DNA of 64,000 nucleotides from an uncultured Poribacteria bacterium. GTDB lineage: Bacteria; Poribacteria; WGA-4E; WGA-3G. The notes under the pieces were generated by a model, which saw only the letters and a program-made list of their open reading frames with translations, did not search any database and had not been told where the DNA came from. The position numbers and the translations under genes were made by a program. Each line of letters begins with the position of its first letter. Position 1 is the first letter of the stretch. Positions 3,606 through 39,881 of the stretch are shown piece after piece. The DNA lies in contig OX638351.1 of assembly GCA_951813565.1 (NCBI GenBank), forward strand, positions 4,544,001 through 4,608,000, given 5' to 3'.

Positions 3606-4238
3606 TTATCGCGCAGCCTTTAATGCACCCCACGTAGTTGTGACTTTCCCGCCGGGTTCTACGGGGAGTTGACCGATGGTATAACGGAAATAGATATCGT
3701 CTTCTGCGTCGTTTGGACCACACCAAACCCAATTCGCTGTACAATCAGGGTCTTTCAGGATATTACGCATAGCAGCTGCCCCACCGCCCCAGATACCACC
3801 TCCGAATTTATCCATAATTTCAAGTTCATTTTCCCATTTACTATCGTCAAAATCCACTTTTTCCCAACCATCATTTCGCTGACCGATAGGTTTTCCAGCC
3901 TCACAACGCCAACCTTCTTCACCTGTGCCGATGTATTCAGGTTTATCATCAAGAATAATGTCAGCAAGGAAACCGCCTCTGCCAGCAGCACCAGGTTCAG
4001 CATCGTGTACATAGATTGCAATCACAGCAAAACCTTTATCCAGTTCAAATTCATCTACAGTGGGTTGATTCCAATGAATGTGTGCATTCACCCTTTCACC
4101 GTTGATAAAAATAGTCCAAGTATTATCACCACTAACACGCAACGTGCCCTTTTTAGGAACAGCATTCACGGTTTGTGTTAAAATTATACTGCCTATCAAC
4201 AGTATGAGTGGTAGACAAAATAAAAATCGTTTGTTCAT
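3606..4238 (-). CDS. Secreted beta-sandwich / carbohydrate-binding-like protein with C-terminal WGxLK tail
   Basis: GGAGG RBS before ATG 4238; signal peptide; DN..IFING and FDDSKW motifs; ends LPVEPGGKVTTTWGALKAAR. Confidence 0.75.
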   Translation of the reverse strand: MNKRFLFCLPLILLIGSIILTQTVNAVPKKGTLRVSGDNTWTIFINGERVNAHIHWNQPTVDEFELDKGFAVIAIYVHDAEPGAAGRGGFLADIILDDKPEYIGTGEEGWRCEAGKPIGQRNDGWEKVDFDDSKWENELEIMDKFGGGIWGGGAAAMRNILKDPDCTANWVWCGPNDAEDDIYFRYTIGQLPVEPGGKVTTTWGALKAAR

Positions 4239-4387
4239 AAAAAACCTCCATTTTATGTATTTGGTATTGAACAAATTTAAATCCGTTCAACCAAAGTATC
4301 AATTTTGGGATATATTATACCAATTCTAAAAAAAAAATAAAATCACATTTATGAGATTTTAGAACTCATACGAATGTGGATGTCCGA

Positions 4388-4410
4388 GGCGCAATGAATT
4401 GCGCGACTAC
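4388..4410. repeat. GTAG-type REP, family GTAGTCGCGCAATTCATTGCGC
   Basis: Copies also at about 3453, 6549, 7818, 34466, 37964, 38235 and 45597, all intergenic. Confidence 0.8.
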
Positions 4411-4525
4411 GAACACGTTTTCTGTTAATAAGAAGTGATTATTCAGATATGGTATTAAATTCCATCTTTACGATAAAACAACGGATTGTAAATTGTCATA
4501 ACCGTTGCTTCCTGACACCTCAACT

Positions 4526-5302
4526 TCAAAATAGCGATGGAAAATGCCGATACGGATCTGCCGGTTCACGAAACAGTATCTTTTGCCGTTCTGTTAATTC
4601 AATACCCCTCGGTTGTGCTACGCGTCGGGATGTCCACGCCATGTGTGAGACACAATATTTATACAAAAGTGATCGCCGCTGATGTTTTCCATTCCATGCG
4701 GCAGTACCGTGTGTCAGTGCCTCAGAAAACAAAATCGCTGAACCAGCAGGAGCGTTTGGAAGAGTGACACAAGGTGCTTGTTCTGGCGCTGCAGCAATCT
4801 CGTGTGGTAATCTATAATTGCTTTTATGGCTGCCGGGAATACAACAAAATCCACCATATTCGGGACCGGTATCTGCCAGATTCCATGTTACCACCACGAA
4901 TCCGTTAGTAATTTCGGTATCTCGAAATGCATAATATTCTCCCTGCTTCGCGTTTGAAGTAGGTGAAGAAGCGCCGTAGTCCGCATGTAGTCCACCTCTC
5001 GGCATTCCTTCGCGCATATACATGCCATAGATACGGTCAAGTCGAAAGCAGTCGCCTAATCGAAAACGGAGAATATCCATTATCTTCGGATTGTCAAGTA
5101 AATCACAAAACGATTTTCCCCACTGTAAAAAGCCTGCACCGTCCGGTGCACTTCCAAATCTTTGGACCTTTCCAGGTACAGGGAGTTCTTGCTCGTCAAT
5201 TCGTTGATTAAGTTCTGCCACCTCTTCAGAATCCAAGACATCCTCAATGACTAAATAGCCTTGCACGTCGAAGAGGTACTGCTGTGTCTGTAGGTCGCTC
5301 AT
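4526..5302 (-). CDS. PhyH-family Fe(II)/2-oxoglutarate dioxygenase
   Basis: FDVQGYLVI, LHAD, IPGSHK and LTHG facial-triad motifs. Confidence 0.9.
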   Translation of the reverse strand: MSDLQTQQYLFDVQGYLVIEDVLDSEEVAELNQRIDEQELPVPGKVQRFGSAPDGAGFLQWGKSFCDLLDNPKIMDILRFRLGDCFRLDRIYGMYMREGMPRGGLHADYGASSPTSNAKQGEYYAFRDTEITNGFVVVTWNLADTGPEYGGFCCIPGSHKSNYRLPHEIAAAPEQAPCVTLPNAPAGSAILFSEALTHGTAAWNGKHQRRSLLYKYCVSHMAWTSRRVAQPRGIELTERQKILFREPADPYRHFPSLF

Positions 5303-5351
5303 GAACTAACCTTCCTGTTTTATAGAATATGCTGATCCTATGTTGAAAATT

Positions 5352-6248
5352 CTACTGTGCATTATCAGTAAGTGCTAATTGTCCGGCAAGGTCTGTGATG
5401 AACTGAAATGCGACTCGACCAGAACGCCCACTGGATGATGCTTCCCACTCCAATGCTGCACGGTGTAATTCCTCTGTCGGTATAGTAATTCCTCGTTTTT
5501 GGGCATAATGCGAAACGATTTGTAAATAAGTCTGCTGCGAAATTCGGTAGAAAGCGAGTCGTAACCCAAAACGGTCGCTTAGCGATACTTTTTCCTCTGT
5601 TGCCTCGCGTGGGTAGAGTTCATCTTCTTCGTTTTGCGGATACTGGTTTTCACTGACCTGTCGAGGCATCAGATGCCGGCGATTAGAAGTTGCATAGATA
5701 AGCATGTTGTCTGGACATTCGGAAATTCCACCTTCCAACACTGCTTTCAATTCACGATATTCAGGTTCGTCTTCGCTAAAAGCAAGGTCATCACAGAAAA
5801 GGAGATAACGTTCCGGACGTTCCCACACTAATTCTGATATTTCCTGTAAATGGATAAATCCCTCTTTACTTATACCGATTAACCGAAGACCGTCGTGAGC
5901 ATAACGGTTCAACATCGCTTTAACCAAAGAAGATTTACCAGTGCCACGGTCACCCCATAGGAGTGCATGATTAGTGGGTAATCCTTGTAGAAACTGCCGC
6001 GTGTTTCTATCCAACGCCTCACATTGTGTGTCTATTCCAATTAAATCAACTGTATCAACAAGATGTGGATGTTTAACAGGAACAATCTGCGCTGTTCCGT
6101 TTTGTTGTCGCCACCGAAATGCTATATAATCGTCGAGTACCTCATTTGATGATTGTACCGCGGGCATTTGCAACCGTGTCAATAAACTATCGGCTTTCTC
6201 AAGCAATTGGCTAAAAAGTTCTTCTTGCTTATGCGTTTTTTCAGACAT
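5352..6248 (-). CDS. DUF815-family AAA+ ATPase
   Basis: LLWGDRGTGKSS, LLFCDDL, YATSNRRHLM, EEKVSLSDRFGL, GRSGRVA. Confidence 0.9.
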   Translation of the reverse strand: MSEKTHKQEELFSQLLEKADSLLTRLQMPAVQSSNEVLDDYIAFRWRQQNGTAQIVPVKHPHLVDTVDLIGIDTQCEALDRNTRQFLQGLPTNHALLWGDRGTGKSSLVKAMLNRYAHDGLRLIGISKEGFIHLQEISELVWERPERYLLFCDDLAFSEDEPEYRELKAVLEGGISECPDNMLIYATSNRRHLMPRQVSENQYPQNEEDELYPREATEEKVSLSDRFGLRLAFYRISQQTYLQIVSHYAQKRGITIPTEELHRAALEWEASSSGRSGRVAFQFITDLAGQLALTDNAQ

Positions 6249-6349
6249 TTTAGAGCGTGTACGTAATACTTTTTACAAAATCCAATGAGGGCATCTAATA
6301 CTGAATAGTCTACTCTTATTTATCAAGAATGTCAACCAATTTTGCTGTC

Positions 6350-6570
6350 CGTAAATTGGGTAAAGTTTGCGAAACCCATAGATCTAATTTTTCCTTCTTC
6401 TTGTAGGAGCGACCTCCTGGTCGCGACCAGGAGGTCGCTCCTACAGAAGACATCGGGCGGACAAAGCCCTCCCACAAGAGGATCTATCGCTAAATTGACA
6501 CCTATGGGTAGTGTTTGCGAAAATCAACAAATGCCATAAGCGCATTTGGCAATGAATTGTGCGACTACAA
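6350..6570. repeat. Cluster of REP-like hairpins
   Basis: Palindromic doublet gtaggagcgacctcctggtcgcgaccaggaggtcgctcctac (6403-6444) plus other REP families. Confidence 0.7.
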
Positions 6571-6628
6571 ACCACCAACCCAAAGAAAATGTCTACTTAT
6601 TTTTATAATTTATCATAAATATGCAATT

Positions 6629-7432
6629 TTATTGCCCAAAATTTTTCAATTGACCCCAGGTAATCGCTAATTTTCCTGTTGAATCAACAGAAAGCGGACC
6701 CTCAAACTTCAGCAAACCAAGATTTGCTGAATCGTCCGGATTCAGACCGTGCCAATCCATAAACACAAGATCCCCCTTCTTTTCAAGATCATCCGTGCCT
6801 TCCTCATACCCGGGTGTAAACCCGACTTCGGATCCTTGTTCTATTTTCACTTTTGTTAGCCATGCAAACGGCATTGCTACTTCGTAAATCATGCCGCCCT
6901 TTCCTAATTCAGGTGTTGGAACAATGGCAATATCAGAATTAGGAAGATCTGCATTTTTCACAGCACTGTAGTCAGTAACACGTGCTTTATTATTGATACG
7001 TGCAAAGTTGGGTTTACATGCAGGTTGTCCGGCTCCTATTTTTTCCCAATCAATATACAAGAAAATTGTATCACCTTTCCACGACTCAGCGGGATTTGCC
7101 GCTGGTGTAAACTCATCATCTCGGACTGCTGCAGCAAAATAGAAATTCTTTTCATCATACATTGTTGACCATGTCATTGTAAGATCGTCTTTTCCTTGCC
7201 ATGTGCCTTTACCACGTAGTAGTTCCTTCTCTGAATCGAAGGCTACCCAGACAGCGTATCTCCAATCGTCAAGTTTTCCATCAATTTTTGGCGTACTCGG
7301 TGGGATACCGGCAATCGATTCTCCATATTTCAGTCCGAACGCGTCACTGTTTTCCTCTGGAAGGAAATCTCCCCTCACTGAAAAGACAAAGAGAACACAT
7401 AAGATGGTAGATAGCATTGCTGATTTGATCAT
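6629..7432 (-). CDS. Secreted CBM9/DOMON-like sugar-binding protein with C-terminal WGxLK tail
   Basis: Signal peptide; PKIDGKLDDW, YFAAAVRDD, YEVAMP; ends LSVDSTGKLAITWGQLKNFGQ. Confidence 0.8.
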   Translation of the reverse strand: MIKSAMLSTILCVLFVFSVRGDFLPEENSDAFGLKYGESIAGIPPSTPKIDGKLDDWRYAVWVAFDSEKELLRGKGTWQGKDDLTMTWSTMYDEKNFYFAAAVRDDEFTPAANPAESWKGDTIFLYIDWEKIGAGQPACKPNFARINNKARVTDYSAVKNADLPNSDIAIVPTPELGKGGMIYEVAMPFAWLTKVKIEQGSEVGFTPGYEEGTDDLEKKGDLVFMDWHGLNPDDSANLGLLKFEGPLSVDSTGKLAITWGQLKNFGQ

Positions 7433-7463
7433 CTTTTTACTCCTTGGGTGTAGAAATTCTTTT

Positions 7464-7661
7464 CTACGACTTATTATCAGAATTGTTGAATATCCGTCTC
7501 AACCATTCTTCAAGGTGTACATCGTTAGAAGCCTCTCTCAAAAGCCACATTCCACCTAATCTAATACCCCATGCAATAGTAATCGCGAGAATCACAGTAA
7601 AAAATAAGGTTGGTACCAGGTATTGTAGTGCTCCTCTAATGAATATTTCTAATGTGGACAT
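7464..7661 (-). CDS. Small single-pass membrane protein (65 aa)
   Basis: AAGGAG RBS upstream, one hydrophobic helix, same strand as neighbours. Confidence 0.6.
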   Translation of the reverse strand: MSTLEIFIRGALQYLVPTLFFTVILAITIAWGIRLGGMWLLREASNDVHLEEWLRRIFNNSDNKS

Positions 7662-7881
7662 TAATATGCTCCTTATGTATAAACTTAGCAGAATAATTCA
7701 CTACATTTTACCTATTCACTCTATATCTGTCAAACAAAATACGTAACTACAGAGCCATTCAATTTTCAGTTTGAATGCAGGAAGTGTGAAACAACACCTC
7801 AAAAGACGTTAAAAAGAGGCGCAATGAATTGCGCGACTACAAACGCGCGTTGTTTTAATGAAATCAATGATTTAGGAACGA

Positions 7882-9597
7882 TTAAGCATCATTATTATTT
7901 GAGGAAGGGACCGCAGGCTCCACATACAATGTTTTTTCGTGTGTATAGTGGACGTAACCCGCAACGTTGCCTTTACGTTTCACAACATAGCGTGCCCAAG
8001 TATAATCTACAGGAACATAACTGGAGTGGTGTGCTTTGCTGAAGTATGCGGCAAGCTGCGCGGCTTGTAATAAGGTGGGCATTGGAATGTCCGGTCGGTT
8101 TTCTGGGTTACGGATAATGACATGCGACCCGTGAATCTGTTTGGCATGAAGCCACATATCACGCGGTTTGGCAATCTGACGCAAAAGTAGATCGTTGGAT
8201 TGGCTATTACGACCGACATAGATATGAAAACCGTTGGTAGAAATATATTTTCGGAAAGGACCTTTACTTATTTCCTGCTGATGTTTGCCACGCTGCTGTG
8301 TTTTCAGGTATCCATTTTCAGTAAATTCCGCATGGAGACGACTTAATGTCTCAAGCGTATCCGCAGATTCGACTTTGTATCCATAAGTACGGAGCACCTC
8401 TTGTTCCGCTTCAAGCGCAGCAAGCCGTTGTTGTATTTGCGAATATCCACGTTTTGCTTTGGTGTATTTTTTAAAATAAGATTGGGCATTTTCGGAAGCG
8501 GTTTGCTCTGGATTCAGCGGGATCGTTAGTGTTTCGAGTTCAGGACTATAGTAATTTTGCAATGAAACCTGTTTTTGTCCGCGAGCGATTTTGTTAAGAT
8601 TTGCAAGTATAAGTTCGCCTTGAATGCGATAATCATCAGATTTTTCCGCCCGTTCCAAATCTTCGTATAGTCCTTTTTCCTTGCGCTGTAGCAGATTTTT
8701 CTGTTTTTCTAACGCCTGTATAAGAGTGTGTTTTTCCGATACCATCTTCTCTTTCAAAGTGATTGCATCGTAGTAGGCGATGAGTGCTTCGCTCATCGTG
8801 TCAAAAGTTTGAGAGGTAGCATTTGAAAATTGATGTAACGGCATTGGTGTGGCAGCTATTGGGTTTTCTCCATCTACGATTAATTGTGGCGAAGCGTCCT
8901 TTGGGTCAAAATACGCAATAACTTGTTGATATGCCTCCCATAGTCCAGTTTTTTCTGAACGGGCAACAATCTCCTTCGCAAGTGTTGGACTCAAACCATC
9001 TATCTTACTAAAAAGTGATTTCCAAGCGACGTCTGATATCTCGAAAAGTTCCTTAAAAGTCTCTTTATCCAGAGTCAATGGATCTAACTTGTCCTGCTGA
9101 GGTGGCAAGGCGTAGGTCTCACCGGGCAACACTTCTCTGTATCGGCTCATTGTTTCGTCAATATGTTTCAGGCATTCCAAAATTCTGTCATCGGTTTCGT
9201 CAATCAGAATGATATTGCTGTGTTTCCCCATAAATTCAGCGATGATTGCTTTCGGAGATGGCTGTATCGGTTCGTCAGATTTGGGTCGGACGGTTATTTT
9301 CAAAATACGATCCCAACCGAGTTGTTCAATCCCTGTGATAGTACCGTGTTTGAGATGTGTTGAAAGAAAATCAGCGAAATAGGATTGCTTTTGACCGGGA
9401 GGCGGTTTCTGAATTAGGTGGGTACGGGCATGGACGGAATGAGCAGATAAACAAAACCAGTGAGTTTGTGCACCTTGTCCAACCTTAAATGAAAATGTGG
9501 TTGGGTTTGCTTGTTCAATGTGCCGAATTGCGCCGCCTAAAAGGGTCTGGTGGAACTCGTGCGTAACAAGGCGTAAGGCTAAACTATCAAAAGACAT
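7882..9597 (-). CDS. rqcH: NFACT/FbpA-family ribosome quality-control protein (Rqc2)
   Basis: MSFDS..L, EFMGKHSNIIL, ENAQSYFKKYTK, VGRNSQSND, WLHAKQIHGSHV, VDYT. Confidence 0.92.
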   Translation of the reverse strand: MSFDSLALRLVTHEFHQTLLGGAIRHIEQANPTTFSFKVGQGAQTHWFCLSAHSVHARTHLIQKPPPGQKQSYFADFLSTHLKHGTITGIEQLGWDRILKITVRPKSDEPIQPSPKAIIAEFMGKHSNIILIDETDDRILECLKHIDETMSRYREVLPGETYALPPQQDKLDPLTLDKETFKELFEISDVAWKSLFSKIDGLSPTLAKEIVARSEKTGLWEAYQQVIAYFDPKDASPQLIVDGENPIAATPMPLHQFSNATSQTFDTMSEALIAYYDAITLKEKMVSEKHTLIQALEKQKNLLQRKEKGLYEDLERAEKSDDYRIQGELILANLNKIARGQKQVSLQNYYSPELETLTIPLNPEQTASENAQSYFKKYTKAKRGYSQIQQRLAALEAEQEVLRTYGYKVESADTLETLSRLHAEFTENGYLKTQQRGKHQQEISKGPFRKYISTNGFHIYVGRNSQSNDLLLRQIAKPRDMWLHAKQIHGSHVIIRNPENRPDIPMPTLLQAAQLAAYFSKAHHSSYVPVDYTWARYVVKRKGNVAGYVHYTHEKTLYVEPAVPSSNNNDA

Positions 9598-12640: not shown

Positions 12641-13753
12641 TTAAAAGGCGACGATTCCTGTCGCTTCAATAAGCCGTGCTTGGCTGGGACCGAAACGGGG
12701 CCCGTATGTCAAATCTATATTAAATAGATACACCTTCACGCCAATACCGTAGGTGAAATAATCTGTTAACTCAGGCAGGTCAATACCCGGCTCAGACTTG
12801 TAGCCTACGCGTAATGCCAATAGGTTACCGAGCCAGTACTCTAAACCAAGATTCTTTTGCAGATGTCGCCATTCAAATGCGCGAATACCTACGCCTCTAT
12901 CAGACAGCAGCTGTTCTTGGGTAAGTTTTTCAGTTCTATCTACGTTAAGCCGTTCTAAATCTGCGGCTAATTCCGTCTCATTCTCCGTCAATTTATCAAT
13001 ATATGCGGCGATTCCACTAACAAAGCGAAGATGGTTATACCTATCACGATAGAGAATCGTAGAAGTTCCAACCCTAAGCATTCTCGGTAATGGATCTGCT
13101 TGGTTTTCATCAATAAAAGAGATACCAGGTCCTATGTTCTGGACTACCACACCTAAAGTTGTAGGCACTAAATCCAACGGAAGAAGATACTGCATTCCTA
13201 AATCAACAGCATAAGAACTGCCTGTTTCTCTACCAAGTACCATCCGTATCATCTTACCGTTGATGCCTGCTGTCAAAGAGCCGGTTATAGCGTCTGCATA
13301 AGAGAAGGTCAAAGCCATGTTGGTGCCGAGGCTTTCTTCACGGAGAACATCAGGAGAATCGCTTGTTACTTGAATAGTGCCTTGCCCTTGTAACTGAAGC
13401 GTAGCACCAACAGTTCCAGCATTTCCCAGCGGCATTGCCCCAGAAATGAATGTATAATATAAGCCTTCACCTGCTTCACCGAATGGTCCGCTATAATCCG
13501 TATAAAACATAGAGGCTTGCGCCCCTTGTTTACCAGAACGTAATTTACTTTCTGGCATCTCCGCCAACCCGCTTGGATTCCAAAGCGATGTGGTAACATC
13601 ACCAGACATAGCGGAAAATGCATCACCCATGGCTCTGGCACGAGCACCGCCGCCTAAGTTAAGGATTTGCGCACCTGTCCGACCTGGACCCGCAAAAACT
13701 GTGGTTGGCAGAAAAAAAACTACTGATAAAAGTAGTGCGAAATATCTCATCAT
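12641..13753 (-). CDS. PorV/PorQ (UPF0164)-family outer-membrane beta-barrel
   Basis: GAQILNLGGGARARAMGDAF...WNPSGLA N-terminus, AVDLG, NIGP, PLP..LRVG, LALRVGY, terminal Phe. Start uncertain (13753 or 13807). Confidence 0.85.
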   Translation of the reverse strand: MMRYFALLLSVVFFLPTTVFAGPGRTGAQILNLGGGARARAMGDAFSAMSGDVTTSLWNPSGLAEMPESKLRSGKQGAQASMFYTDYSGPFGEAGEGLYYTFISGAMPLGNAGTVGATLQLQGQGTIQVTSDSPDVLREESLGTNMALTFSYADAITGSLTAGINGKMIRMVLGRETGSSYAVDLGMQYLLPLDLVPTTLGVVVQNIGPGISFIDENQADPLPRMLRVGTSTILYRDRYNHLRFVSGIAAYIDKLTENETELAADLERLNVDRTEKLTQEQLLSDRGVGIRAFEWRHLQKNLGLEYWLGNLLALRVGYKSEPGIDLPELTDYFTYGIGVKVYLFNIDLTYGPRFGPSQARLIEATGIVAF

Positions 13754-13897
13754 AAAAGCATGCTTAGTTTCATAAGAACCTGCGTAGGGAACTCTATGAA
13801 ATAGCACCTCCTCTGTATCTATTTTTGTTAAAAATTTACTTTATATTATTATAACATATATTTTAACGTAAATCACTTTTTCAGGTTTACATTCAAT

Positions 13898-13935
13898 AAA
13901 AAGAAATAGGCAGATACCCAAATGGGTACCTGCCT
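13898..13935 (-). terminator. Intrinsic terminator after the TolB-like gene (copy at 16872-16909)
   Basis: aggcagataccca/tgggtacctgcct stem with a U-rich tract on the minus strand. Confidence 0.65.
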
Positions 13936-13961
13936 GTGTTAGAAATCGGTTTTTTTGTGTC

Positions 13962-14978
13962 CTACTGCGCTAATTCCTGCTTCAAATATCCCCAGCGAGT
14001 CGTCACTTTCTCCGCAGGAGACACGGCAAGCGGCCCTTCAACCCAATGCGGAAACAAAGCATGCCCTTGTGGAAAATCGGTGAGCTTCGTCATGCGACGG
14101 CTATTCAGATCATACCGATGGATATTACGGGTACCCCCCGTTTCTTGATATGAAAGCAGCACGGTGTTATCATCCCCCATCCACGTTAAACCGGCCACCT
14201 GCCCATATTTCCCCTCCGGTGTGGGGAGCTTGTGGACATCGCGCGCGTTCGTGGACACCTTATGAATAATAAGGCGTCTCGCTACGGGCTTCAGATCTAC
14301 CTCATGATACATGATGTATCTACCGGAGGGGGACCAGCACGCATAACCACGAACAGTAAGGGTGGCAGGGGCAGGGACGATCTGTTCTTTTTTGCCACCA
14401 TCAGCATTCATGACCCAGATAGCCTCTCCATTGTGATAAACAATCCGGCTACCGTCAGGAGACCAACGCGGCGCTTGGGTCCACCCGCCTTCTATTTCGT
14501 TATTTGTCAGCGCAGTGAGTTTGTCACGTGCTAAGTCGTAGACGTAAATATCTAACTCGCCCGTCCGGCGACTGTCAAAGGCGATGTACCTACCATCTGG
14601 AGAGGGGTCGGGGCTTGTGTCTTTTCGATGGGGGTCCACGATAAAGCTGTATTCATTGCGTCCTGTTTCATCTATGATGAATAATTCTCTATGTATTGTT
14701 GTCCCTGTGTTCCATTTGCCTTCCCCCCAGTCTCTTTCGAACACGATCCGTTTGCCATCAGGAAACCATCGCGGCGTTCTATCATAACGATGGGGGGGCG
14801 TAATTCTGCGTAAGTTGCTGCCGTCATCCTCCATCGCATAGATATGATAGCGCGTTGCTCCCAGATGTTTCAGTCCTGCTTGGAACACTATTTTGGCATT
14901 GCTATTCAACTGACAAAGCAAGAAAATAGCAAAACAGCCGAACAGATGCAAAAGTGTTGGACAACGTTTCATTATCAT
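13962..14978 (-). CDS. Secreted TolB-like (PD40) beta-propeller with WGxLK tail, copy 1
   Basis: AAGGAG RBS before ATG 14978; repeated WFPDG/SPDG/WSPDG; ends LAVSPAEKVTTRWGYLKQELAQ. Confidence 0.88.
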   Translation of the reverse strand: MIMKRCPTLLHLFGCFAIFLLCQLNSNAKIVFQAGLKHLGATRYHIYAMEDDGSNLRRITPPHRYDRTPRWFPDGKRIVFERDWGEGKWNTGTTIHRELFIIDETGRNEYSFIVDPHRKDTSPDPSPDGRYIAFDSRRTGELDIYVYDLARDKLTALTNNEIEGGWTQAPRWSPDGSRIVYHNGEAIWVMNADGGKKEQIVPAPATLTVRGYACWSPSGRYIMYHEVDLKPVARRLIIHKVSTNARDVHKLPTPEGKYGQVAGLTWMGDDNTVLLSYQETGGTRNIHRYDLNSRRMTKLTDFPQGHALFPHWVEGPLAVSPAEKVTTRWGYLKQELAQ

Positions 14979-15050
14979 GGCAAAGCTCCTTTCGTGTAGA
15001 GTCTGCGGGCCTTTATGAGAGCCCACAGACAATAGAATAGCAGAAAGTTA

Positions 15051-15349
15051 TTAATTAAGCGGAGGATCAGAAAGATTGAGTTCCTCGGAGTCGGAGACGT
15101 TGAGTTCATCTATATTTGCTCCGCCGTCTATGGGTTGTGCGGTGGCAGTGATCTCCGCTTGAACAAGATACTTGTGACCTTCTAGTAGATTGCTCCCATC
15201 AAAGGAGTCGGATTTAGAGTAAGGCGGCGCACTATCAGACGATCCGGGGTTTGCCTCAAGCCTTCCCCCTCGGAAGAGTCCCGGAGGCTGGTTCCATAGT
15301 GTATCTGCCGCATTGCCTAAGGGTGTTAAGCGGACAACATTATAAAATA
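15051..15349 (-). pseudogene. 3' fragment of a paralog of gene 18025-18846, truncated at the IS
   Basis: Matches 18025-18314 but ends LNLSDPPLN instead of LNLSRN; no 5' half. Confidence 0.85.
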
Positions 15350-15360
15350 GACATTATAAT

Positions 15361-16818
15361 CAATACCTTCGCCAAAAATAATTGAATAAATAGGGCGTCT
15401 GTCCTAAAGTTATAACAGTTAACCATAACTTAGAAAGGACAATCGCCCATGTCAGAAATTATAGCACTGTTTACTGTTCTTAATCCATGTTTATCCGCAA
15501 CGATGACGCGGCAGTTATGCCGAGTTGTATTCGCACTACTTGCGATGAGTGGTCGGGTAACCATGTTAAATATCTCTCGTTGGACAACCCAAGGCGGTAG
15601 CTACCGCACCATACAACGCTTTTTCAACACTGTTATGTCTTGGACGACGATGTGTTGGATGTTTTTTCGCACGCATCTGTTTGATCGTGAAAGTGACTAC
15701 ATCCTCACAGGAGACGAAGTGGTTGTGCCAAAAGCAGGAAAATCTACTTATGGTTTATCTCGTTTCTTTTCTTCATTGTATGGCAAAGCGGTCCCCGGTT
15801 TGTCGTTTTTAGCCGTGTCCTTAGTGAGTGTCAACCGAAGGCGTTCATACCCGATGGTTATGGAGCAAATCGTGCGTGGCACCTCATCGTCAAATCAAGG
15901 AGTTTGTGCTTCCGAACATCAGGACAACACCGAGACAGCAACACCAAGACATAAATGCGGGCGTCCAAAGGGAAGCCGAAACCGAAACAAAGACGATGTC
16001 ATGCTCAGCGATGTGTTGAAGCAACTTCAAACGATGGTCAAGGCGTTGCTAAAACTGGTTGGCAACTTGATCCCACTCCGTTATCTTGTGCTTGATGGAT
16101 ACTTCGGACATAATAATGCGCTACAAATGACAAAGCAATGTGGACTACATCTCATTTCAAAACTACGCATAGATGCTGCGTTGTATCTGCCACCGACGAC
16201 ACCTTACGCCGGACAAGGGCGCCCACGCATCTACGGAGAGCGTTTCACCCCACGACAGATTGACCCTAAGTATTGTGTTTCTGCCGACACACAGGGAAAC
16301 CTGAGAACCGAAGTGTATCAAATGAACTTACGCCACAAAAAGTTCACAGACTTCCTAAATGTAGTTTGCGTTCTCAAAACGAACTTGACGACGAAACAAC
16401 AAGCACACGTTTTACTGTTCAGTTCTGATTTAGCGTTAGACGCTGAAAAACTGATTGATTATTATTCCCTCCGTTTTCAAATCGAGTTCAACTTCCGCGA
16501 CGCAAAGCAATATTGGGATTACAAGATTTTATGAATGTCAACAAGATACCAGTAAACAATGCAGCGAACCTCTCAATGTTTATGGTGAATGTGAGTGCTA
16601 AACTCATAGATACGCTCCGTTGTAAAAATACTGCGTCCAGTGTTTTAGACCTAAAAGCACGCTACCGAGGTTTGAAGTATTTACACGAAACATTAAAAAT
16701 ACTTCCGCAAAAACCTGAACCTATTGTTATTCAACAAATCGCACAACATTTGGGAACAATCGGTGCTATTCATCACACACAACCAAAACTGAACCCCGGA
16801 TAATTGGCGAAGGTATTG
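15361..16818 (+). mobile_element. IS4/IS701-like insertion sequence, 1458 bp
   Basis: Perfect 15-bp TIR caataccttcgccaa / ttggcgaaggtattg; flanks attataat vs attattat are not an exact duplication. Confidence 0.9.
15449..16803 (+). CDS. DDE transposase with YREK signature, one frameshift
   Basis: GDE, LDGYF and YSLRFQIEFNFRDAK motifs; adding one G at 16515-16517 gives QYWGLQDFMN and a continuous frame. Confidence 0.88.
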
Positions 16819-16935
16819 ATTATTATAACATATATTTTAACGTAAATCACTTTTTCAGGTTTACATTCAATAAAAAGAAATAGGCAGATACCCAAATGGG
16901 TACCTGCCTGTGTTAGAAATCGGTTTTTTTGTGTC

Positions 16936-17952
16936 CTACTGCGCTAATTCCTGCTTCAAATATCCCCAGCGAGTCGTCACTTTCCCCGCAGGAGACACGG
17001 CAAGCGGTCCTTCAACCCAATGCGGAAAGTAAGCATGCCCTTGTGGAAAATCGGTGAGTTTCGTCATCCGACGGCTATTCAGATCATACCGATGGATATT
17101 ACGGGTACCCCCCGTTTCTTGATATGAAAGCAGCACGGTGTTATCATCCCCCATCCACGTTAAACCGGCCACCTGCCCATATTTCCCCTCCGGTGTGGGG
17201 AGCTTGTGGACATCGCGCGCGTTCGTGGACACCTTATGAACAATAAGGCGTCTCGCTACGGGCTTCAGATCTACCTCATGATACATGATGTATCTACCGG
17301 AGGGGGACCAGCACGCATAACCACGAACAGTAAGGGTGGCAGGGGCAGGGACGATCTGTTCTTTTTTGCCACCATCAGCATTCATGACCCAGATAGCCTC
17401 TCCATTGTGATAAACAATCCGGCTGCCGTCAGGAGACCAACGCGGCGCTTGGGTCCACCCGCCTTCTATTTCGTTATTTGTCAGCGCAGTGAGTTTGTCA
17501 CGTGCTAAGTCGTAGACGTAAATATCTAACTCTCCTGTCCGGCGACTGTCAAAGGCGATGTACCTACCATCTGGAGAGGGGTCGGGGCTTGTGTCTTTTC
17601 GATGGGGGTCCACGATAAAGCTGTATTCATTGCGTCCTGTTTCATCTATGATGAATAATTCTCTATGTATTGTTGTCCCTGTGTTCCATTTGCCTTCCCC
17701 CCAGTCTCTTTCGAACACGATCCGTTTGCCATCAGGAAACCATCGCGCCGCAGTATCATAACGATGGGGGGGCGTAATTCTGCGTAAGTTGCTGCCGTCA
17801 TCCTCCATCGCATAGATATGATAGCGCGTATCTCCAGCGTGTTTTATTTTCGCATCAAACACTATTTTTGCAGTGCCATTCAACGGACAAAGCAGGAACA
17901 TAGCAAGAAGGGCCAACACAGGTAAAAGGGTCAGACGACTTTTTATTTTCAT
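16936..17952 (-). CDS. Secreted TolB-like (PD40) beta-propeller with WGxLK tail, copy 2
   Basis: Near-identical to 13962-14978 except the N-terminal ~40 aa and a few codons. Confidence 0.88.
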   Translation of the reverse strand: MKIKSRLTLLPVLALLAMFLLCPLNGTAKIVFDAKIKHAGDTRYHIYAMEDDGSNLRRITPPHRYDTAARWFPDGKRIVFERDWGEGKWNTGTTIHRELFIIDETGRNEYSFIVDPHRKDTSPDPSPDGRYIAFDSRRTGELDIYVYDLARDKLTALTNNEIEGGWTQAPRWSPDGSRIVYHNGEAIWVMNADGGKKEQIVPAPATLTVRGYACWSPSGRYIMYHEVDLKPVARRLIVHKVSTNARDVHKLPTPEGKYGQVAGLTWMGDDNTVLLSYQETGGTRNIHRYDLNSRRMTKLTDFPQGHAYFPHWVEGPLAVSPAGKVTTRWGYLKQELAQ

Positions 17953-18024
17953 AGCATGGCTCCTTTCGTGTAGAGTCTGCGGGCCCTTACGAGAGCCCGC
18001 AGACAATAGAATAGCAGAAAGTTA

Positions 18025-18846
18025 TTAATTACGAGAAAGATTGAGTTCCTCGGAGTCGGAGACGTTGAGTTCATCTATATTTGCTCCGCCGTCTATGGGT
18101 TGTGCGGTGGCAGTGATCTCCGCTTGAACAAGATACGTGTGATCTTCTAGTAGATTGCTCCCATCAAAGGAGTCGGATTTAGAGTAAGGCGGCGCACTAT
18201 CAGACGATCCGGGGTTTGCCTCAAGCCTTCCCCCTCGGAAGAGTCCCGGAGGCTGGTTCCATAGTGTCTCTGCCGCATTGCCTAAGGGTGTTAAGCGGAC
18301 AACATTATAAAATATATTAAACCCATAGTTGATTGGCTCTTCACTGTAGCTTGTAACGCTTGCTGATCCAATGACTTCTGCGGTGCGGCCGTTCCAGCCG
18401 ACATCCATTGATGCGGACATTTGCGCCATCGTCCAGCTTCCCGTCTTTGTGCCCGTTTGTGGCGCGCTGTAGACACTCGCGCTGTAGGAATCAGTGTCAG
18501 AGGGGAACGTATTATTCTCCGCATCAGAAAACCACGCCACTGCCTTTATCGTATAAGTTCTACCGAAAGGAGAACCCGCGCGCGTGCTCAAGTTTTCATA
18601 GACACTTCTCGTGGGAGAGTAGTAGTGCGAAGTCGTCTTTATTTTTAGATTGTCTATATACCAGTCTATAACATATATGTCTTCATCCGCTGACAGAGAT
18701 GCGTCAACGTACGCACCACCCCCAAAATCATTACTTGTATAGACGGACAGCGACGTGATAGACGCTGCATCACTTTGATTGATAATACTGATTAGCAACA
18801 AGGAACATATCGCAATCGCGATCCCGATTGATTTCAATCTGATCAT
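18025..18846 (-). CDS. Secreted Ser/Thr-rich beta-sandwich-like hypothetical protein
   Basis: AAGGAG RBS before ATG 18846; signal peptide ending SDA. Confidence 0.7.
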   Translation of the reverse strand: MIRLKSIGIAIAICSLLLISIINQSDAASITSLSVYTSNDFGGGAYVDASLSADEDIYVIDWYIDNLKIKTTSHYYSPTRSVYENLSTRAGSPFGRTYTIKAVAWFSDAENNTFPSDTDSYSASVYSAPQTGTKTGSWTMAQMSASMDVGWNGRTAEVIGSASVTSYSEEPINYGFNIFYNVVRLTPLGNAAETLWNQPPGLFRGGRLEANPGSSDSAPPYSKSDSFDGSNLLEDHTYLVQAEITATAQPIDGGANIDELNVSDSEELNLSRN

Positions 18847-19038
18847 TTTTCTTTCTCCTTTATATTCAGTTGACATGCTTTTGCTTGCATATCGTCTTAA
18901 ACATTTATCAATCTGGACGGTATTCATCCAGAGGTCATTTTGATTTTGACAGACCCTAAAGGAGAAGTTGGCAGGAAAATAAAAAGTAAACGTTACTGTC
19001 AACTCTAACCTTTGGGCGCGCTGGTTTCCATATTACTA

Positions 19039-33758: not shown

Positions 33759-33776
33759 AAAGCGAAGAAGAAAGAT

Positions 33777-34290: not shown

Positions 34291-34534
34291 TAGTGAAACC
34301 ATAATTATTTGGACATTTTGTTCTTATGTGGATTTTAAACACGCGATAAATGTCCGAGGCGCAGCATGCCACACGGGGAATGCCATAAGGCATTCGGACC
34401 CGGTGAATGACTAAATGTCGTTCATACCTTTGATTTCTTGATTTGGCGCATGCTGCGTTGATTTGGCAATGAATTGCGCGACTACAAACACCGCTAACCT
34501 TAAGAAAATGTCCAGGTATTTTTAGATTTTACTA
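34291..34534. mobile_element. MITE family B relative in the 5' leader of the phosphoesterase gene
   Basis: TA|tagtgaaacc...ggacattt ... aaatgtcc...ttttacta|TA; shares the ggggaatgcc..ggcattcggacccggtgaatgactaa block with 3075-3599. Confidence 0.75.
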
Positions 34535-34562
34535 TAAAACCCACACGCATCAGGAGAATTAT

Positions 34563-36317
34563 ATGCTTAAGTGCGCTCAAATATTAAAAATCGTAGTGGT
34601 GTCTGTCCTATGTCTTGCAATGATTGCTACGACTACTGCCCAAAAACCCGACTTTCCGGAACGCATACCTATTGTTGAACGTCCCTTTTCTGACGACCCA
34701 GATAAGTTCACTTTCGCTATCATTGGAGACAAAACTGGTGGTGGATTAGATAAGTGGCCAGTATTTGACCGCGCAATAGATGAAATCAACACCTTAAAAC
34801 CTGACTTTGCTATCATGGTAGGCGACTTAATACAGGGAGATACAACAGACCTTAAACAACTTACTGCAGAATGGAAAGAATTTTGGGATCATCAATCCGA
34901 TTTAATCGTCCCGTTTCTGCCATTGCCCGGTAACCACGATATTACTAACCGCGTGATGTATGACTACTGGGAGAAGCACATCGGACGCACCTATTCGGCG
35001 TTTACTTACAAAAATTGTCTATTCCTATTGCTCAATACAGAGGAGTGGCATACAAACAGTGGTGAATGGACAAACTGGTTTGGGGAAGAACAGATTGAAT
35101 ATGTGAAATCTCAATTGACACAACACACGGATGTGCGGCATACGTTTGTAATGTTGCACAGACCTCTTTGGCTTCAGAAACATTCCGGTTGGGAAGAAAT
35201 TGAAGCGGCACTCGGTGAACGGGCATACACTGTTTTCGCAGGACACTACCATAGGTTGACACTTCATACTCGCAATGACCGCCGATACTTTGTGCTCGGT
35301 GCTACCGGTGGCGGATTCACACCACAGGCAGTGCGAGAATACGGTGCATTCGATCATTATAGCCTTGTAACTGTTGATAACGAAGATGTCAATATCGCAA
35401 TCATTGAACCGGGTAGCATCCACTCTGCAGACCTCTCAACCGCAACGTTTAAAGACAAGGTTTCCAGCCTACTCAAATTTAAACCCGATTTTAACCTCAA
35501 CAAAGATGAATCTTTTTCTTATGGAAGTCTTGAAGTCGCACTTGAAAACACACTTGAAAAACTAATTCAAGTTGAATTAGTTTTTCAACCAAATCAGAAT
35601 TGGCAGATTTCCCCAAACCAATTATCTTTTGAAGCTAAACCGGGACAAACTACAAAAACAATTGTAACCTTTTCTGTTCCAACGGATAACTTCCTCCCGT
35701 TTCCTATTTACAAATATTCCGGGTTATATGGTGGCGAACAATTGTTAAGCGGCAGGCAGTTGTTTCACCCTATTGCCAGAGAACATATGCGCGTCCTGAA
35801 AAATTGGATGCTTCTCGGTCCCTTTGATCTCGGTATAGAAAAGATACCCGCAAACACAAACGAAATTCCGCAAAGTTTTCTTGAAATACCTGTCCCCGAA
35901 CTTAATCTTGAAAAAACCTATCAAGGAAAAGAAGGCGAAATCTCTTGGCAAGAACACAATGCTGAATCGGATAATGTCAAATTAAGGGATATATTTGGAA
36001 ATGCAGAATTGACATACAGTTATGCCATGTCCTATATCAAAAGTCCAGATGCGCGGCATGTTTTTGCCCAGATCAGATGGGGAGGCAACCTCGGCAGACT
36101 CTATCTCAATGGAGTTGAGATTCCTAATGCCGCTATCCCTGGAAAAGACCTATATTCTTGGTGGGCACACTTTGAATTACCTTTGAAAAAAGGTTGGAAT
36201 ACTTTGGCGATTTTGTCGGGTGATTATAATGGGTATTGGGATTTTCGGATGGAAATCGCAGACCCGACGAAGGTACTTGAGTTTGGAGTGGCGCCGACTG
36301 CTGAATATAATAAGTAA
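34563..36317 (+). CDS. Secreted calcineurin-like metallophosphoesterase with C-terminal beta-sandwich domains
   Basis: IGD, GDLI, PGNHD, HRP and AGHYH motifs; signal peptide. Confidence 0.88.
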   Translation: MLKCAQILKIVVVSVLCLAMIATTTAQKPDFPERIPIVERPFSDDPDKFTFAIIGDKTGGGLDKWPVFDRAIDEINTLKPDFAIMVGDLIQGDTTDLKQLTAEWKEFWDHQSDLIVPFLPLPGNHDITNRVMYDYWEKHIGRTYSAFTYKNCLFLLLNTEEWHTNSGEWTNWFGEEQIEYVKSQLTQHTDVRHTFVMLHRPLWLQKHSGWEEIEAALGERAYTVFAGHYHRLTLHTRNDRRYFVLGATGGGFTPQAVREYGAFDHYSLVTVDNEDVNIAIIEPGSIHSADLSTATFKDKVSSLLKFKPDFNLNKDESFSYGSLEVALENTLEKLIQVELVFQPNQNWQISPNQLSFEAKPGQTTKTIVTFSVPTDNFLPFPIYKYSGLYGGEQLLSGRQLFHPIAREHMRVLKNWMLLGPFDLGIEKIPANTNEIPQSFLEIPVPELNLEKTYQGKEGEISWQEHNAESDNVKLRDIFGNAELTYSYAMSYIKSPDARHVFAQIRWGGNLGRLYLNGVEIPNAAIPGKDLYSWWAHFELPLKKGWNTLAILSGDYNGYWDFRMEIADPTKVLEFGVAPTAEYNK

Positions 36318-36503
36318 ATCTGGTTTTTGTAGAATTTTGGCGGTTTGTGTGTTGTCTGAACCGAGATTTGCAGGATTACCTGATTTTCAGGCAAACGGTA
36401 GGCGCGTTTGTAACGCGCCTACCAGGAGTGGTGGAGGGCTTATAAAGCCCTCCCACAAGAGTGCTGCGCGCCACTTGAATGGCTCTACTAAAACATCTGA
36501 AAT

Positions 36504-36532
36504 TTGACAAAAATCCCTACACACGCTATATT
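36504..36532 (+). promoter_or_regulatory. Sigma70-type promoter for phnY*-phnZ
   Basis: TTGACA-17 bp-TATATT about 30 bp upstream of the ATG. Confidence 0.6.
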
Positions 36533-36564
36533 AAACATAAGAGCGTTATCTTCAAGGATGGATT

Positions 36565-37347
36565 ATGACTCACCTCAATTCGGCACTCCACCGAGACTGG
36601 CAAAACAACGGCTACTTGAAAATTCCTACCTTCTTCTCTACTGAAGAAGTGAAAGACCTAAAAACATGGGTATCTGAAATCTCATCTTGGGAACCGACTG
36701 AAGATAAATGGATGCATCACTACGAATCAACACCAGAAGGTGCAAGACTTTCTCGTTCAGAAAATTTTGTGCCATACCATACCGATATGAAAAACACCGT
36801 GACAAGCGGTAAAGTTTTGGGTGTTGTTTCTGAGTTGATGGCAGAATCGGCAGTTCTTTACAAAGAGAAAATCAACTACAAGTATCCCGGTGGCGGCGGT
36901 TACGTTGCTCATCAGGATGCTCCTGCCTACGAGTTTGTTGACTATCACATCACCTGTCTAATCTCAGTAGATTCAGCAACTCCAGAAAGCGGATGTCTCT
37001 ATTTCTCACCAGGCAGGCATAAAGAAGGGTTCATCGCACTTGACGAGAAAGGTTGTGTCGCGCCCGAAACTGCCTTGAAGATGGAGTGGATCGCAGTGCC
37101 AACCGCACCCGGTGACATTCTCCTTTTCGGTTCTTACATTCCGCACAAGAGTCCTCCTAATCGTTCAAATGAATCGAGACGGATTATCTATCTCACCTAT
37201 AACGCTAAGTCTCAAGGTGATTGGCGTGAGCGGTATTATGCCGACAAGCGGCAAGCCTTTTCCCAATATGCAAATGACGGTTCAAAACGAAACAAACAAA
37301 TTAGCAAAATCGCACATTTTCAAGGAAAAGTTATAAGTCATGAATAA
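36565..37347 (+). CDS. phnY: PhnY*-like phosphonate hydroxylase (PhyH-type Fe/2OG dioxygenase)
   Basis: RSENF, LYKEKINYKYPGGGG..AHQDAP, YYADKR; overlaps the HD-domain gene. Confidence 0.75.
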   Translation: MTHLNSALHRDWQNNGYLKIPTFFSTEEVKDLKTWVSEISSWEPTEDKWMHHYESTPEGARLSRSENFVPYHTDMKNTVTSGKVLGVVSELMAESAVLYKEKINYKYPGGGGYVAHQDAPAYEFVDYHITCLISVDSATPESGCLYFSPGRHKEGFIALDEKGCVAPETALKMEWIAVPTAPGDILLFGSYIPHKSPPNRSNESRRIIYLTYNAKSQGDWRERYYADKRQAFSQYANDGSKRNKQISKIAHFQGKVISHE

Positions 37348-37936
37348 TTACATTGATCCAAGCCTTGCACGGAAAATGAGCGCCGCAACACTACAACAAA
37401 AGGTTGACATACTATTTACCTACATGGAGAAACGTGGACAGTCATTTTACGATGAGGCCGTGACACAACTTGAACACGCGCTCCAATGTGCTGCACTCGC
37501 AAAGCAGAACGATGCAAGCCCCACACTAATTACAAGCGCATTGCTCCATGACATCGGACATATTATCTTAGATGAGCACAATGCAGATGTCGCTTTTCTG
37601 GACACGGACCTGAATCATGAGGAGATTGGCGCGCAGTATCTGGAACCGTTTTTCCCGGAATCCATCACAACACCGATCCGACTGCATGTCCCTGCAAAAA
37701 GGTATCTGTGTACAACCGATTCCTCTTACTATGACGGGCTATCCGAAGCATCAAAAAGAAGTCTTAAACTTCAGGGCGGTGTAATGTCAGACAAGGAGCG
37801 AGAAGCGTTTGAACAGATTTCGCATTATTTGGACGCGCTCACCTTACGGCGATGGGACGATATGGCTAAGGTGAAAGGGTTAGAGACTGTGGGTTTAGAA
37901 ACCTACCGAGATGTCGTACAACAATGTATAAAGTAG
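37340..37936 (+). CDS. phnZ: PhnZ-like HD-domain di-iron C-P cleaving oxygenase
   Basis: YDEAVTQLEHALQCA, LLHDIGH, HE.IGA, LHVPAKRYL, SL.LQGG.M, LRRWDDMAK. Confidence 0.85.
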   Translation: MNNYIDPSLARKMSAATLQQKVDILFTYMEKRGQSFYDEAVTQLEHALQCAALAKQNDASPTLITSALLHDIGHIILDEHNADVAFLDTDLNHEEIGAQYLEPFFPESITTPIRLHVPAKRYLCTTDSSYYDGLSEASKRSLKLQGGVMSDKEREAFEQISHYLDALTLRRWDDMAKVKGLETVGLETYRDVVQQCIK

Positions 37937-37963
37937 AATCCAATTTTTAGATTTATAGCGTTT

Positions 37964-38290
37964 GTAGTCGCGCAATTCATTGCGCATCTTACATTACCCG
38001 GTCGGAGCGGTTTCCTAACCGCTCCGTATTGTAGTGATACTGTTCGTTCAGTACATCGTAGGTTAAGTAGAATTTGTGAAACCAACATGTAGCAGGCTCC
38101 GCGTGCCGTAGCAAGTTACGGCATACGGAGTATGCCTACTACTTTGCACCATTTATAGGTTGGATAGAGTTTGCGAAACCCAACAATGCCAAGAGAGGCA
38201 ACAAATGCTATACGCGTATTTGACGTTGATTTGGCAATGAATTACGCTACTACACGCGGTTCTTCTTTATGCGCTTTATAAGCGCGCTTT
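37964..38290. repeat. Cluster of at least five different REP-like hairpins
   Basis: gtagtcgcgcaattcattgcgc, ggagcggtttcctaaccgctcc, ggcatacggagtatgcctactac, ttggatagagtttgcgaaacccaa, gcgctttataagcgc. Confidence 0.7.
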
Positions 38291-38344
38291 TAATAGTTTT
38301 CAAGTAATTATAGGTTTTATCATAGAAACTGAAAGGAGAAAAAA

Positions 38345-39022
38345 ATGAGTTATGAAGCAATTGAATCAAAGTTTATCGCAACACCAGAAAAAGGCGAAGT
38401 GTCCTCACTTCTCATCCGTCCAGACAATGCAAAATGGATATTAGTGCTTGGACATGGCGCGAGCACAAATATGCACAGTTCAACACTCCAGACGATTTCC
38501 GAACGATTAGCCGATATAAACATCGCAACGTTCCGCTATCAGTTTCCTTACATGGAACGTGGCGGTGGCGGCAGAGAATCGGAGGCGGTTGCCTTACAGA
38601 CTGTCCGATCAGCGGCGGCTGCTGCACACGAGGCTGCAAGCGATCTGTCCATCCTCGTCGGCGGACACTCCTATAGCGGACGTATGTCCTCAATGTCCGC
38701 AGCGAAAGAACCGATTGAACATGTCAAAGGACTTGTATTTTTCGCATTTCCGTTGCATCCTTCTGGCAAGGAAGGTACGGAACGCGCGGTACATCTCGCT
38801 GACGTTACCATACCAATGTTATTCCTGTCTGGCACACGCGATAAGTTGGCAAAACTTGAGTTGTTGGAACCGGTCTGTGAAAAACTTGGCGACAAAGCCA
38901 CCTTACATCTGTTGGATACGGCTGACCACGGATTCAAAGTTCTCAAACGCCGTAATACGGAGGAAGACGTTTTTGTTGAGATGGCACGGGTGCTGAGTGA
39001 ATGGGCAGAAACCCTGGGTTGA
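38345..39022 (+). CDS. Alpha/beta hydrolase (KANL3/Tex30-like, dienelactone hydrolase-like)
   Basis: HGAS, RYQFPYM, GGHSYSG nucleophile elbow, FPLHP, GTRD, ADHGF. Confidence 0.88.
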   Translation: MSYEAIESKFIATPEKGEVSSLLIRPDNAKWILVLGHGASTNMHSSTLQTISERLADINIATFRYQFPYMERGGGGRESEAVALQTVRSAAAAAHEAASDLSILVGGHSYSGRMSSMSAAKEPIEHVKGLVFFAFPLHPSGKEGTERAVHLADVTIPMLFLSGTRDKLAKLELLEPVCEKLGDKATLHLLDTADHGFKVLKRRNTEEDVFVEMARVLSEWAETLG

Positions 39023-39077
39023 CCACCTATTTGGATTATTTATAATCCACTATAATCCTTTCTTGTCCTAAGGAGAC

Positions 39078-39881
39078 ATGATGAAATTTACTACTTTGAT
39101 TGTAGCATGTATCCTCTTTTTACTTACATTGTCTCTCAGGGCAGGAACTTATGTTGATACATTTGATGACCGTAAATTGACGGATTGGAAAGAAGTCAAC
39201 GTAAAGGATCCCCGACCTGGCAAATGGAGAGTCTTTAATGGGGAACTCCGTGCCGATAATAAGGATGACGATATCCGGCTACTCGTCCTCAAAGATGTTC
39301 AATGGACCAATTACGATGTTGAGTTAGAGGTGATGCCGCTTGAAAAACCTGGACGGGGGCATATTGTGGTTGCTGCTCGAGTCACTGAAACCAGAGCGAT
39401 TGTTTTTACAATAGGAGATGTCTTTTGGGATGCTCCCTTCCCAATCGTCAAAGGGACTATTCTTGACTTGGAAACTGGAAATTTAGATGGACTGCCGTTG
39501 TGGTTCCGCTTAAATGGCGGTCAAAAAAACATTGACAATATGTTGCGAGATGGGGTCAACTTACCTTGTAAAACTGTTTACGCACACCCATTTCTAAAGA
39601 CAGGTGAATGGAGCCACTTAAAACTGAAAGTAGGTGGTGACCTTTTTATGTTCTGGGTTAATGATGAGTTAGTTCTGACAACAATATGTGATATAGATCA
39701 TTTGGCATTTCTTGATGGGGACCTCGTTATTGGCAGCGTCGGTTTCGGTATTGCTGGTTATACTGCTCTATTTGACAATTTTGTCTTTACAGGCGAAGGA
39801 ATTCCAAACCGTGGTCGGTTGTCGGTTCAGCCACAAGACAAACTCGGAACAACATGGGGGAGATTGAAACAGATGCACTAA
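39078..39881 (+). CDS. Secreted DUF1080/ConA-like protein with C-terminal WGxLK tail
   Basis: Signal peptide; W..YDVE, W.HLKL, GSVGF, LFDNF; ends LSVQPQDKLGTTWGRLKQMH. Confidence 0.78.
   Translation: MMKFTTLIVACILFLLTLSLRAGTYVDTFDDRKLTDWKEVNVKDPRPGKWRVFNGELRADNKDDDIRLLVLKDVQWTNYDVELEVMPLEKPGRGHIVVAARVTETRAIVFTIGDVFWDAPFPIVKGTILDLETGNLDGLPLWFRLNGGQKNIDNMLRDGVNLPCKTVYAHPFLKTGEWSHLKLKVGGDLFMFWVNDELVLTTICDIDHLAFLDGDLVIGSVGFGIAGYTALFDNFVFTGEGIPNRGRLSVQPQDKLGTTWGRLKQMH

Follow-up and report, generated by a model that had tools for sequence, protein, structure and literature searches.

Why should five predicted exported proteins of four unrelated folds end in the same short C-terminal tail? The question arises from a 64,000-nt stretch of an uncultured Poribacteria bacterium (GenBank assembly GCA_951813565.1, contig OX638351.1, positions 4,544,001 to 4,608,000), here called the window. 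An earlier note, made from the letters of the window, had described the tail and proposed a lineage-wide secretion or surface-anchoring signal with no characterized machinery. We find that the tail is real and apparently undescribed. The last part of that proposal was too strong: the tail tracks type IX secretion systems (T9SSs) that have SprA and lack a detectable GldM, and it occupies the slot of the T9SS C-terminal domain (CTD), so that a variant T9SS is its likely reader. That the tail is a signal at all we infer from sequence.

A terminal tail on predicted exported proteins

All five C-termini quoted earlier are present exactly, with the stop codon 3 to 5 residues downstream, in five of the 52 nonshadow open reading frames (ORFs) of the window. 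Each of the five proteins has a hydrophobic N-terminus. The genome itself groups with Poribacteria: it matches seven of nine loci from records of that name at 66 to 78% nucleotide identity and none of five loci from other groups. They represent the four families claimed and not five independent genes, because those at 13962 and 16936 are a duplicate pair with 95% nucleotide identity. Across the 6644 ORFs of at least 100 aa in this genome, the regular expression K.{4}W[GAS].[LIMVT]K, derived from the consensus in the earlier note, matched 141 times within 15 residues of the end and seven times further inside; the last 16 residues make up 5.8% of all residues, so this placement is far above chance. 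A hidden Markov model (HMM) seeded on 143 terminal matches gave 153 terminal and five nonterminal matches at 10 bits or more. Of the five nonterminal matches, two precede a T9SS CTD and the other three an extension of 16 to 39 aa. Beside sprA, two propeller genes (2019693-2022021 of this genome) encode the tail and then an extension of 26 to 39 aa.

Our working set comprises 157 ORFs (HMM score of at least 10 bits within 16 aa of the end, or 6 to 10 bits within 6 aa), a count that likely contains one or more false members and leaves out six variant tails ending TTLWGRLKQAERM. The tails have the form L[APSD]V[EDS]PxxKLTTTWGx[LI]K, with the tryptophan 4 to 11 residues before the C-terminus and column frequencies in the HMM set of L51 [A36 P27 S17 D9] V89 E42 P67 x G45 K L70 [TA] T69 T67 W G70 x [L53 I36] K. 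The conserved positions use all synonymous codons and conservation does not extend past the stop codon, which argues that selection acts on the peptide.

By a hydropathy rule, a signal-peptide-like start was found in 144 of the 157 tail ORFs and in 1040 of 3579 background ORFs, so that the scan proposed in the earlier note returned both terminal placement and signal-peptide enrichment. The remaining 13 are mostly fragments or misstarted ORFs; one tail ORF without a signal peptide lies at 3349061-3349411. Only one of the 144 signal-peptide tail proteins has a lipobox-like start (background, 136 of 772), and none has a further transmembrane segment, in agreement with the claim that the tail lacks a membrane helix. 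The tail proteins sort into 37 clusters with a median length of 266 aa, and 154 of the 157 are at most 450 aa long, whereas 23 proteins with an NYPNP-type CTD span 416 to 3534 aa. Their cargo consists of small lectin-like or propeller domains without lipid anchors.

As the earlier note had supposed, the tail falls outside known sorting-domain models: neither NCBIfam (all five window tails) nor Pfam (four of four) gave a match, and a true CTD used as a control did match. The literature searched, in which supplementary tables were not covered and subscription journals lay mostly outside, yielded no description of the tail.

Multicopy tails in other bacterial groups

By DNA pattern, the tail is present in all 41 genomes of the phylum, 38 of them with at least 21 matches. 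Together with its terminal position, the signal-peptide enrichment, and the near exclusion of lipoproteins, this supports the proposed signal within Poribacteria; the restriction to one lineage does not hold. A terminal TWGx[IL]K tail is multicopy in Eisenbacteria, Krumholzibacteria, Latescibacterota, and Fermentibacterota and, with Poribacteria and Ignavibacteria/Rhodothermia, spans six bacterial groups. A scan of a genome collection gave at least 125 loci (80 titled and 45 untitled). Among the titled matches listed, the tail is terminal in 38 of 39 loci from Eisenbacteria, Poribacteria, Krumholzibacteria, Latescibacterota, Fermentibacterota, and Ignavibacteriaceae, in two of 13 from other named taxa, and in 25 of 28 without a taxon name; the listed untitled loci gave 39 of 45. 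Here the Sabulitectum and Aegiribacteria loci are counted under Fermentibacterota, where we take them to belong.

Pattern counts per genome were 46, 47, 28, 26, 16, 15, 10, and 6, against 0 to 2 for reversed-pattern controls, and in the phylum to which the Latescibacterota genome belongs, 41 genomes yielded 87 matches, with 15 for the control. In regions of seven genomes chosen for their pattern matches, the motif lay within 16 aa of the stop codon in all 35 occurrences. The tail-rich genomes of these other groups also hold SprA, C25, and PorV-family genes and many CTDs.

A single-copy carrier in Ignavibacteria and Rhodothermia

The Ignavibacteriaceae match is a 138-aa protein made up of a signal peptide, one domain, and the tail. 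It belongs to a conserved family of FnIII-like proteins of about 136 aa, present as one copy in Ignavibacteria and Rhodothermia and including a member in the cultured Rhodothermus marinus (WP_012842694.1 / ACY47082.1 / D0MCX2). The sequence TWGSIKAIFR ends all of the best 120 relatives of the 138-aa protein. Among the best 150 representatives at 50% identity, the tail ends 121 of 123 small proteins (110–230 aa) and none of 24 long ones, three shorter entries being left uncounted; the profile itself contained the tail and therefore favors tailed proteins among small matches. The long relatives mostly end in CTD-like sequence.

Conservation in the small family is concentrated in the tail (T100 W100 G100 I93 K100 F99), whose columns are 89 to 100% conserved against a mean column identity of 30%. 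In the predicted structure, a sandwich of FnIII-like fold leads through a linker to a helix spanning residues 126 to 136 (pLDDT about 65–71). Searches against solved structures returned no sequence match below E = 0.07 and generic FnIII folds, with no T9SS structure among the fold matches listed; NCBIfam and Pfam returned no match to the protein. It occurs once per genome in 45 of 121 genomes of its phylum, where the TTWG-type DNA pattern is at background (18 matches versus 19 for the control); the single-copy form is RRTWG and was found by profile. A narrow profile of the small protein detected no orthologue in 13 tail-rich genomes, and no conserved T9SS neighbor of its gene was seen.

The two largest tail proteins of this Poribacteria genome end in the same FnIII-like domain followed by the tail (E = 3.8e-8 and 2.8e-7, for the domain part only). 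This shared arrangement suggests that the poribacterial tail is related to the small family by descent and not by chance.

The tail follows SprA and the absence of GldM

In this genome we found 31 TIGR04183 matches, a SprA-like gene (2167 aa, E = 9e-46), and three C25 proteins in which His-Gly and Cys are retained. The PorV family has about 14 genes, of which one lies in the window; 8 to 21 PorV-family matches were found per genome. SprA-like and C25 genes accompany the tail in all nine tail-bearing genomes reached through named records and in both of two other Poribacteria. GldM gave no match in this genome and three other tail genomes, the Latescibacterota one included; positive controls accompanied the GldM search in the 41-genome draw described below, and very divergent Gld orthologues could escape such searches. 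GldN was not found in four of four tail genomes and was found in the one control, GldK and GldL not having been searched for.

The profiling against T9SS genes that the earlier note had proposed was carried out in one draw of 41 genomes from a phylum that we take to be Bacteroidota in the broad sense. The small tailed protein was present in 20 of 25 genomes with SprA and without GldM above the cut-off, in none of nine with GldM, and in none of seven without SprA; one tail genome gave a weak GldM match, the groups are probably clades, and the completeness of the genomes is not given.

Conserved neighbors of the small-protein gene or of sprA included only housekeeping genes and lptF/G, and no candidate reader. 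In 10 of 18 sprA loci, from genomes that are GldM-negative or whose GldM status was not examined, sprA adjoins lptF/lptG-like genes divergently; the four that were checked all belong to PF03739. This arrangement makes a coupling of the T9SS to lipopolysaccharide export possible. In this genome, PorV-family genes at 36191, 852428, 1415359, 1994498, and 4111133 each adjoin a CTD-type or C25 protein, which suggests, by analogy with type B systems, dedicated carrier-cargo pairs.

The tail in the place of the CTD

Tail and CTD alternate on the same upstream domains. After the FnIII-like domain of the small family, long proteins carry a CTD and 121 of 123 small representatives the tail, and two CTD proteins of this genome share a cargo domain with tail proteins. 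In four proteins of this genome a CTD directly follows the tail, which in three of them has Leu in place of Trp; tandems that retain the Trp occur in 16 of 41 genomes of the order. AlphaFold2 modeling of the tandem gave a confident CTD and an unordered tail (pLDDT 49–66), from a shallow alignment of 26 sequences; packing of the tail on its own CTD was not seen.

The measured PorU site is X/(GSA)(VLI) (PMC4560394). A (GSA)(VLI) pair at a constant position was found in 93 of the 121 tails of the small family and in 78 of 154 tails of this genome, against a background of 4%. Asp occupies the predicted P1′ in 12 of the 154. The lead-ins of the other groups read T/(G,A,S,D)(V,I) in CTDs and (T,V,L)/(P,A,S)(V,T) in tails.

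Features of the window

The five tailed genes and the PorV/PorQ-family gene are listed in Table 1. The barrel at 12641..13807, one of about 14 paralogues, is a candidate carrier of the tail; it grouped with PorU-adjacent PorVs in one of two trees.

Table 1. Tailed proteins and PorV/PorQ-family barrel of the window
Feature	Coordinates	Strand	Remarks
222-aa signal-peptide protein with tail	3606..4274	-	weak rhamnosidase-N-like match; tail codons 3606-3668
267-aa CBM9-like (PF06452) protein with tail	6629..7432	-	tail codons 6629-6694
PorV/PorQ-family barrel	12641..13807	-	NF033709 184 bits (cut-off 90); T9SS_OM_PorV 99 bits, below cut-off 250
356-aa PD40/TolB-like propeller with tail	13962..15032	-	tail codons 13962-14030
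356-aa propeller with tail, duplicate (95% nt) of 13962-15032	16936..18006	-	tail codons 16936-17004
267-aa PF06439-like (3-keto-disaccharide-hydrolase-like) protein with tail	39078..39881	+	tail codons 39819-39881

The propeller gene lies in a 1.5-kb duplication (13845-18314) on both sides of a DDE_5 transposase gene (15449-16534). Just upstream of one tailed propeller gene, 18025-19002 encodes a 325-aa protein that matches no family and contains a signal-peptide-like stretch, and a similar gene (2018828 of this genome) precedes the propeller pair beside sprA. Elsewhere the window holds a gene pair for BamA/TamA-like (1028 aa) and TamB/AsmA-like (2100 aa) proteins (50238-59629), and a YihY/BrkB-family gene split over two ORFs, probably by a frameshift (60738-61883).

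Discussion

We favor the reading, at roughly even confidence, that the tail is a helical mini-CTD that stands in for the T9SS CTD in SprA-bearing systems with no detectable GldM/GldN motor. It draws on the likeness to the PorU site (PMC4560394) and from findings in Flavobacterium, where a carrier barrel inside SprA recognizes substrates and the motor is required for release (PMC10994853). The TWGx[IL]K part is predicted to form a short helix after a flexible linker. Tailed proteins would reach the periplasm by Sec export; a PorV-family barrel, one of many, might then capture the helix at SprA, and the protein would pass through SprA to the surface. There a PorU-like C25 enzyme may cut at x/(G,S,A)(V,I), and the protein would be either joined to a surface glycan or released; tails with Pro at the cut position would likely stay uncut. 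Ignavibacteria and Rhodothermia would keep one conserved tailed protein, and Poribacteria and the four other groups would put the tail on many small binding proteins. More broadly, and with somewhat less than even confidence, we suggest that much of FCB outside Bacteroidia uses a T9SS without the Gld motor and with its own second signal, a 20-residue helical tail that would derive from a small conserved accessory protein, single copy to this day in Rhodothermus and Ignavibacteria, and that would serve as the main export route of Poribacteria (157 tails versus about 31 CTDs).

Several observations weigh against the mini-CTD reading. The poribacterial SprA scores below the curated cut-off (155.7 versus 200 bits), and our signal-peptide calls rest on a crude rule of hydropathy. 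The Fisher p values of the SprA/GldM profile (4e-5 and 0.009) overstate the association because the profile follows clades, and five of the 25 genomes with SprA and without GldM showed no tail protein (no terminal tail in the 30 of 54 loose pattern matches inspected). Our trees, poorly supported, gave no PorV clade specific to the tail-rich groups, and tail genes had no fixed link to T9SS genes in the neighborhoods examined. Only 19 of 85 other-group tails fit (GSA)(VLI); Pro occupies the predicted P1′ in one small-family tail, in 41 of 154 tails of this genome, and in 24 of 85 other-group tails. Motifs B, D, and E of the type A CTD, which comprise a Tyr/Gly loop, GxY, and a basic strand at the terminus (PMC11969387), are absent from the tail column frequencies. 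A tail ahead of an intact CTD suggests a job other than targeting, as does the single tailed protein per genome in Ignavibacteria/Rhodothermia.

Among known systems, the closest is the type A CTD (TIGR04183, PF18962; FlgD_ig-like PF13860 here) with its PorV shuttle and PorU sortase. Like it, the tail is terminal on signal-peptide proteins, follows the same upstream domains, often has an X/(GSA)(VLI)-type lead-in, occurs in direct tandems with it, and is encoded in genomes that hold SprA, PorV-family, and C25 genes. A type A CTD, however, is an Ig-like beta-sandwich of 70 to 100 aa that binds PorV through beta-strand motifs (PMC11969387), whereas the tail is a predicted linker and helix of about 20 aa that matches no CTD HMM, often has Pro at P1′, and is found only where GldM is undetected. 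The short CTDs of Prevotella intermedia (40–55 aa) are a T9SS signal shrunk and still cut at PT/GI, but they keep three beta-strands and motifs B, D, and E, and the tail, half as long, has none of these (PMC11969387). Type B CTDs are likewise a second signal class read by alternative barrels, of which this genome has many paralogues, yet they too are Ig-like domains, with dedicated carrier barrels (PMC10994853), and the tail genes have no barrel gene as a partner. The tail would act like a T9SS CTD without being a member of that family, whose fold and motifs B, D, and E it lacks. The tail also resembles the tripartite C-terminal sorting signals (LPXTG, PEP-CTERM, and GlyGly-CTERM) in being short and portable and in occurring on dozens of exported proteins within one genome that are otherwise unrelated. 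Those signals carry a transmembrane helix and a basic cluster after the motif; the tail has no such helix and no NCBIfam match.

The frequent Pro at the predicted cut site would also be expected of an uncut docking peptide. Tailed proteins would then attach to a surface receptor or scaffold delivered by the T9SS, either a dedicated PorV-family barrel or a protein exported by its CTD, much as type B substrates stay on the carriers that anchor them (PMC10994853), and would form a plug-in array of small modules that bind sugars. On this account a tail before an intact CTD would have a second role, and small lectin-like or propeller cargo without lipid anchors and 8 to 21 PorV-family matches per genome agree with such an array. 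We regard this account as unlikely, though with a real chance of being correct: 93 of 121 tails of the small family retain (GSA)(VLI), the tandem model (pLDDT 49–66, 26 sequences) shows no ordering of the tail on the CTD, and neither trees nor gene neighborhoods yielded a receptor.

The conservation of the tail columns in a protein that is single copy in each of 45 of 121 genomes, and that is excluded from GldM genomes, also fits an accessory subunit of the Gld-less T9SS. Such a subunit, whether a plug, a ligand of the gate, or a handle for another energy source, would bind the machinery by its tail from the periplasm, and the multicopy tails would have been co-opted as handles that keep proteins at that site instead of exporting them; in Flavobacterium, the step that needs the motor is release from SprA (PMC10994853). 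We consider this rather improbable, because the gene has no conserved T9SS neighbor, the narrow profile found no orthologue in the 13 tail-rich genomes, the domain and lead-in resemble ordinary cargo, and the fold matches listed include no T9SS structure.

Still more doubtful, and in our judgment quite improbable, is a tail unrelated to the T9SS, a peptide common to related phyla that retains proteins in the periplasm, targets them to a tail-specific protease, or binds membranes, with the SprA link due to ancestry. Such a reading accords with a profile that rests on few clades, with a link to the T9SS drawn from genome content, and with the free basic C-terminus; against it, none of the seven SprA-less genomes of the same phylum keeps the tail, tails swap and form tandems with CTDs, and the hydrophobic moment of the helix is modest, its value at 100 degrees not exceeding that at 170 degrees. 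A translated DNA repeat or recent duplication product without protein-level function has next to no chance of being correct: 83 of the 157 tail genes lie within 3 kb of another and 72 fall in one cluster, but the tail spans 37 clusters and six groups, and free synonymous codon use with no conservation after the stop codon rules out such an origin.

The accessible text of PMC11285876 states that T9SSs may exist in other FCB phyla, in a list that names neither Poribacteria nor the tail. Kamke et al. 2014 (PMC3909097), who found no Por structural genes, did not settle how poribacterial CTD proteins are secreted; the present genome does contain SprA-, PorV-, and PorU-like genes. New here are the tail in groups beyond Poribacteria, its single-copy carrier, the profile with SprA and without GldM, and the likeness to the CTD slot and the PorU site.

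If the mini-CTD reading is true, no T9SS signal would be shorter, and none before it would have lacked a beta fold. The tail would then bear on how SprA functions without GldLM, and it would assign a location to what is the largest class of predicted exported proteins in Poribacteria and related groups without cultured members. On the broader reading, the receptor of the tail would be the first known component peculiar to the motor-less T9SS. With a single-copy carrier in the cultured Rhodothermus marinus, a motif of uncultured bacteria comes within reach of a one-gene experiment.

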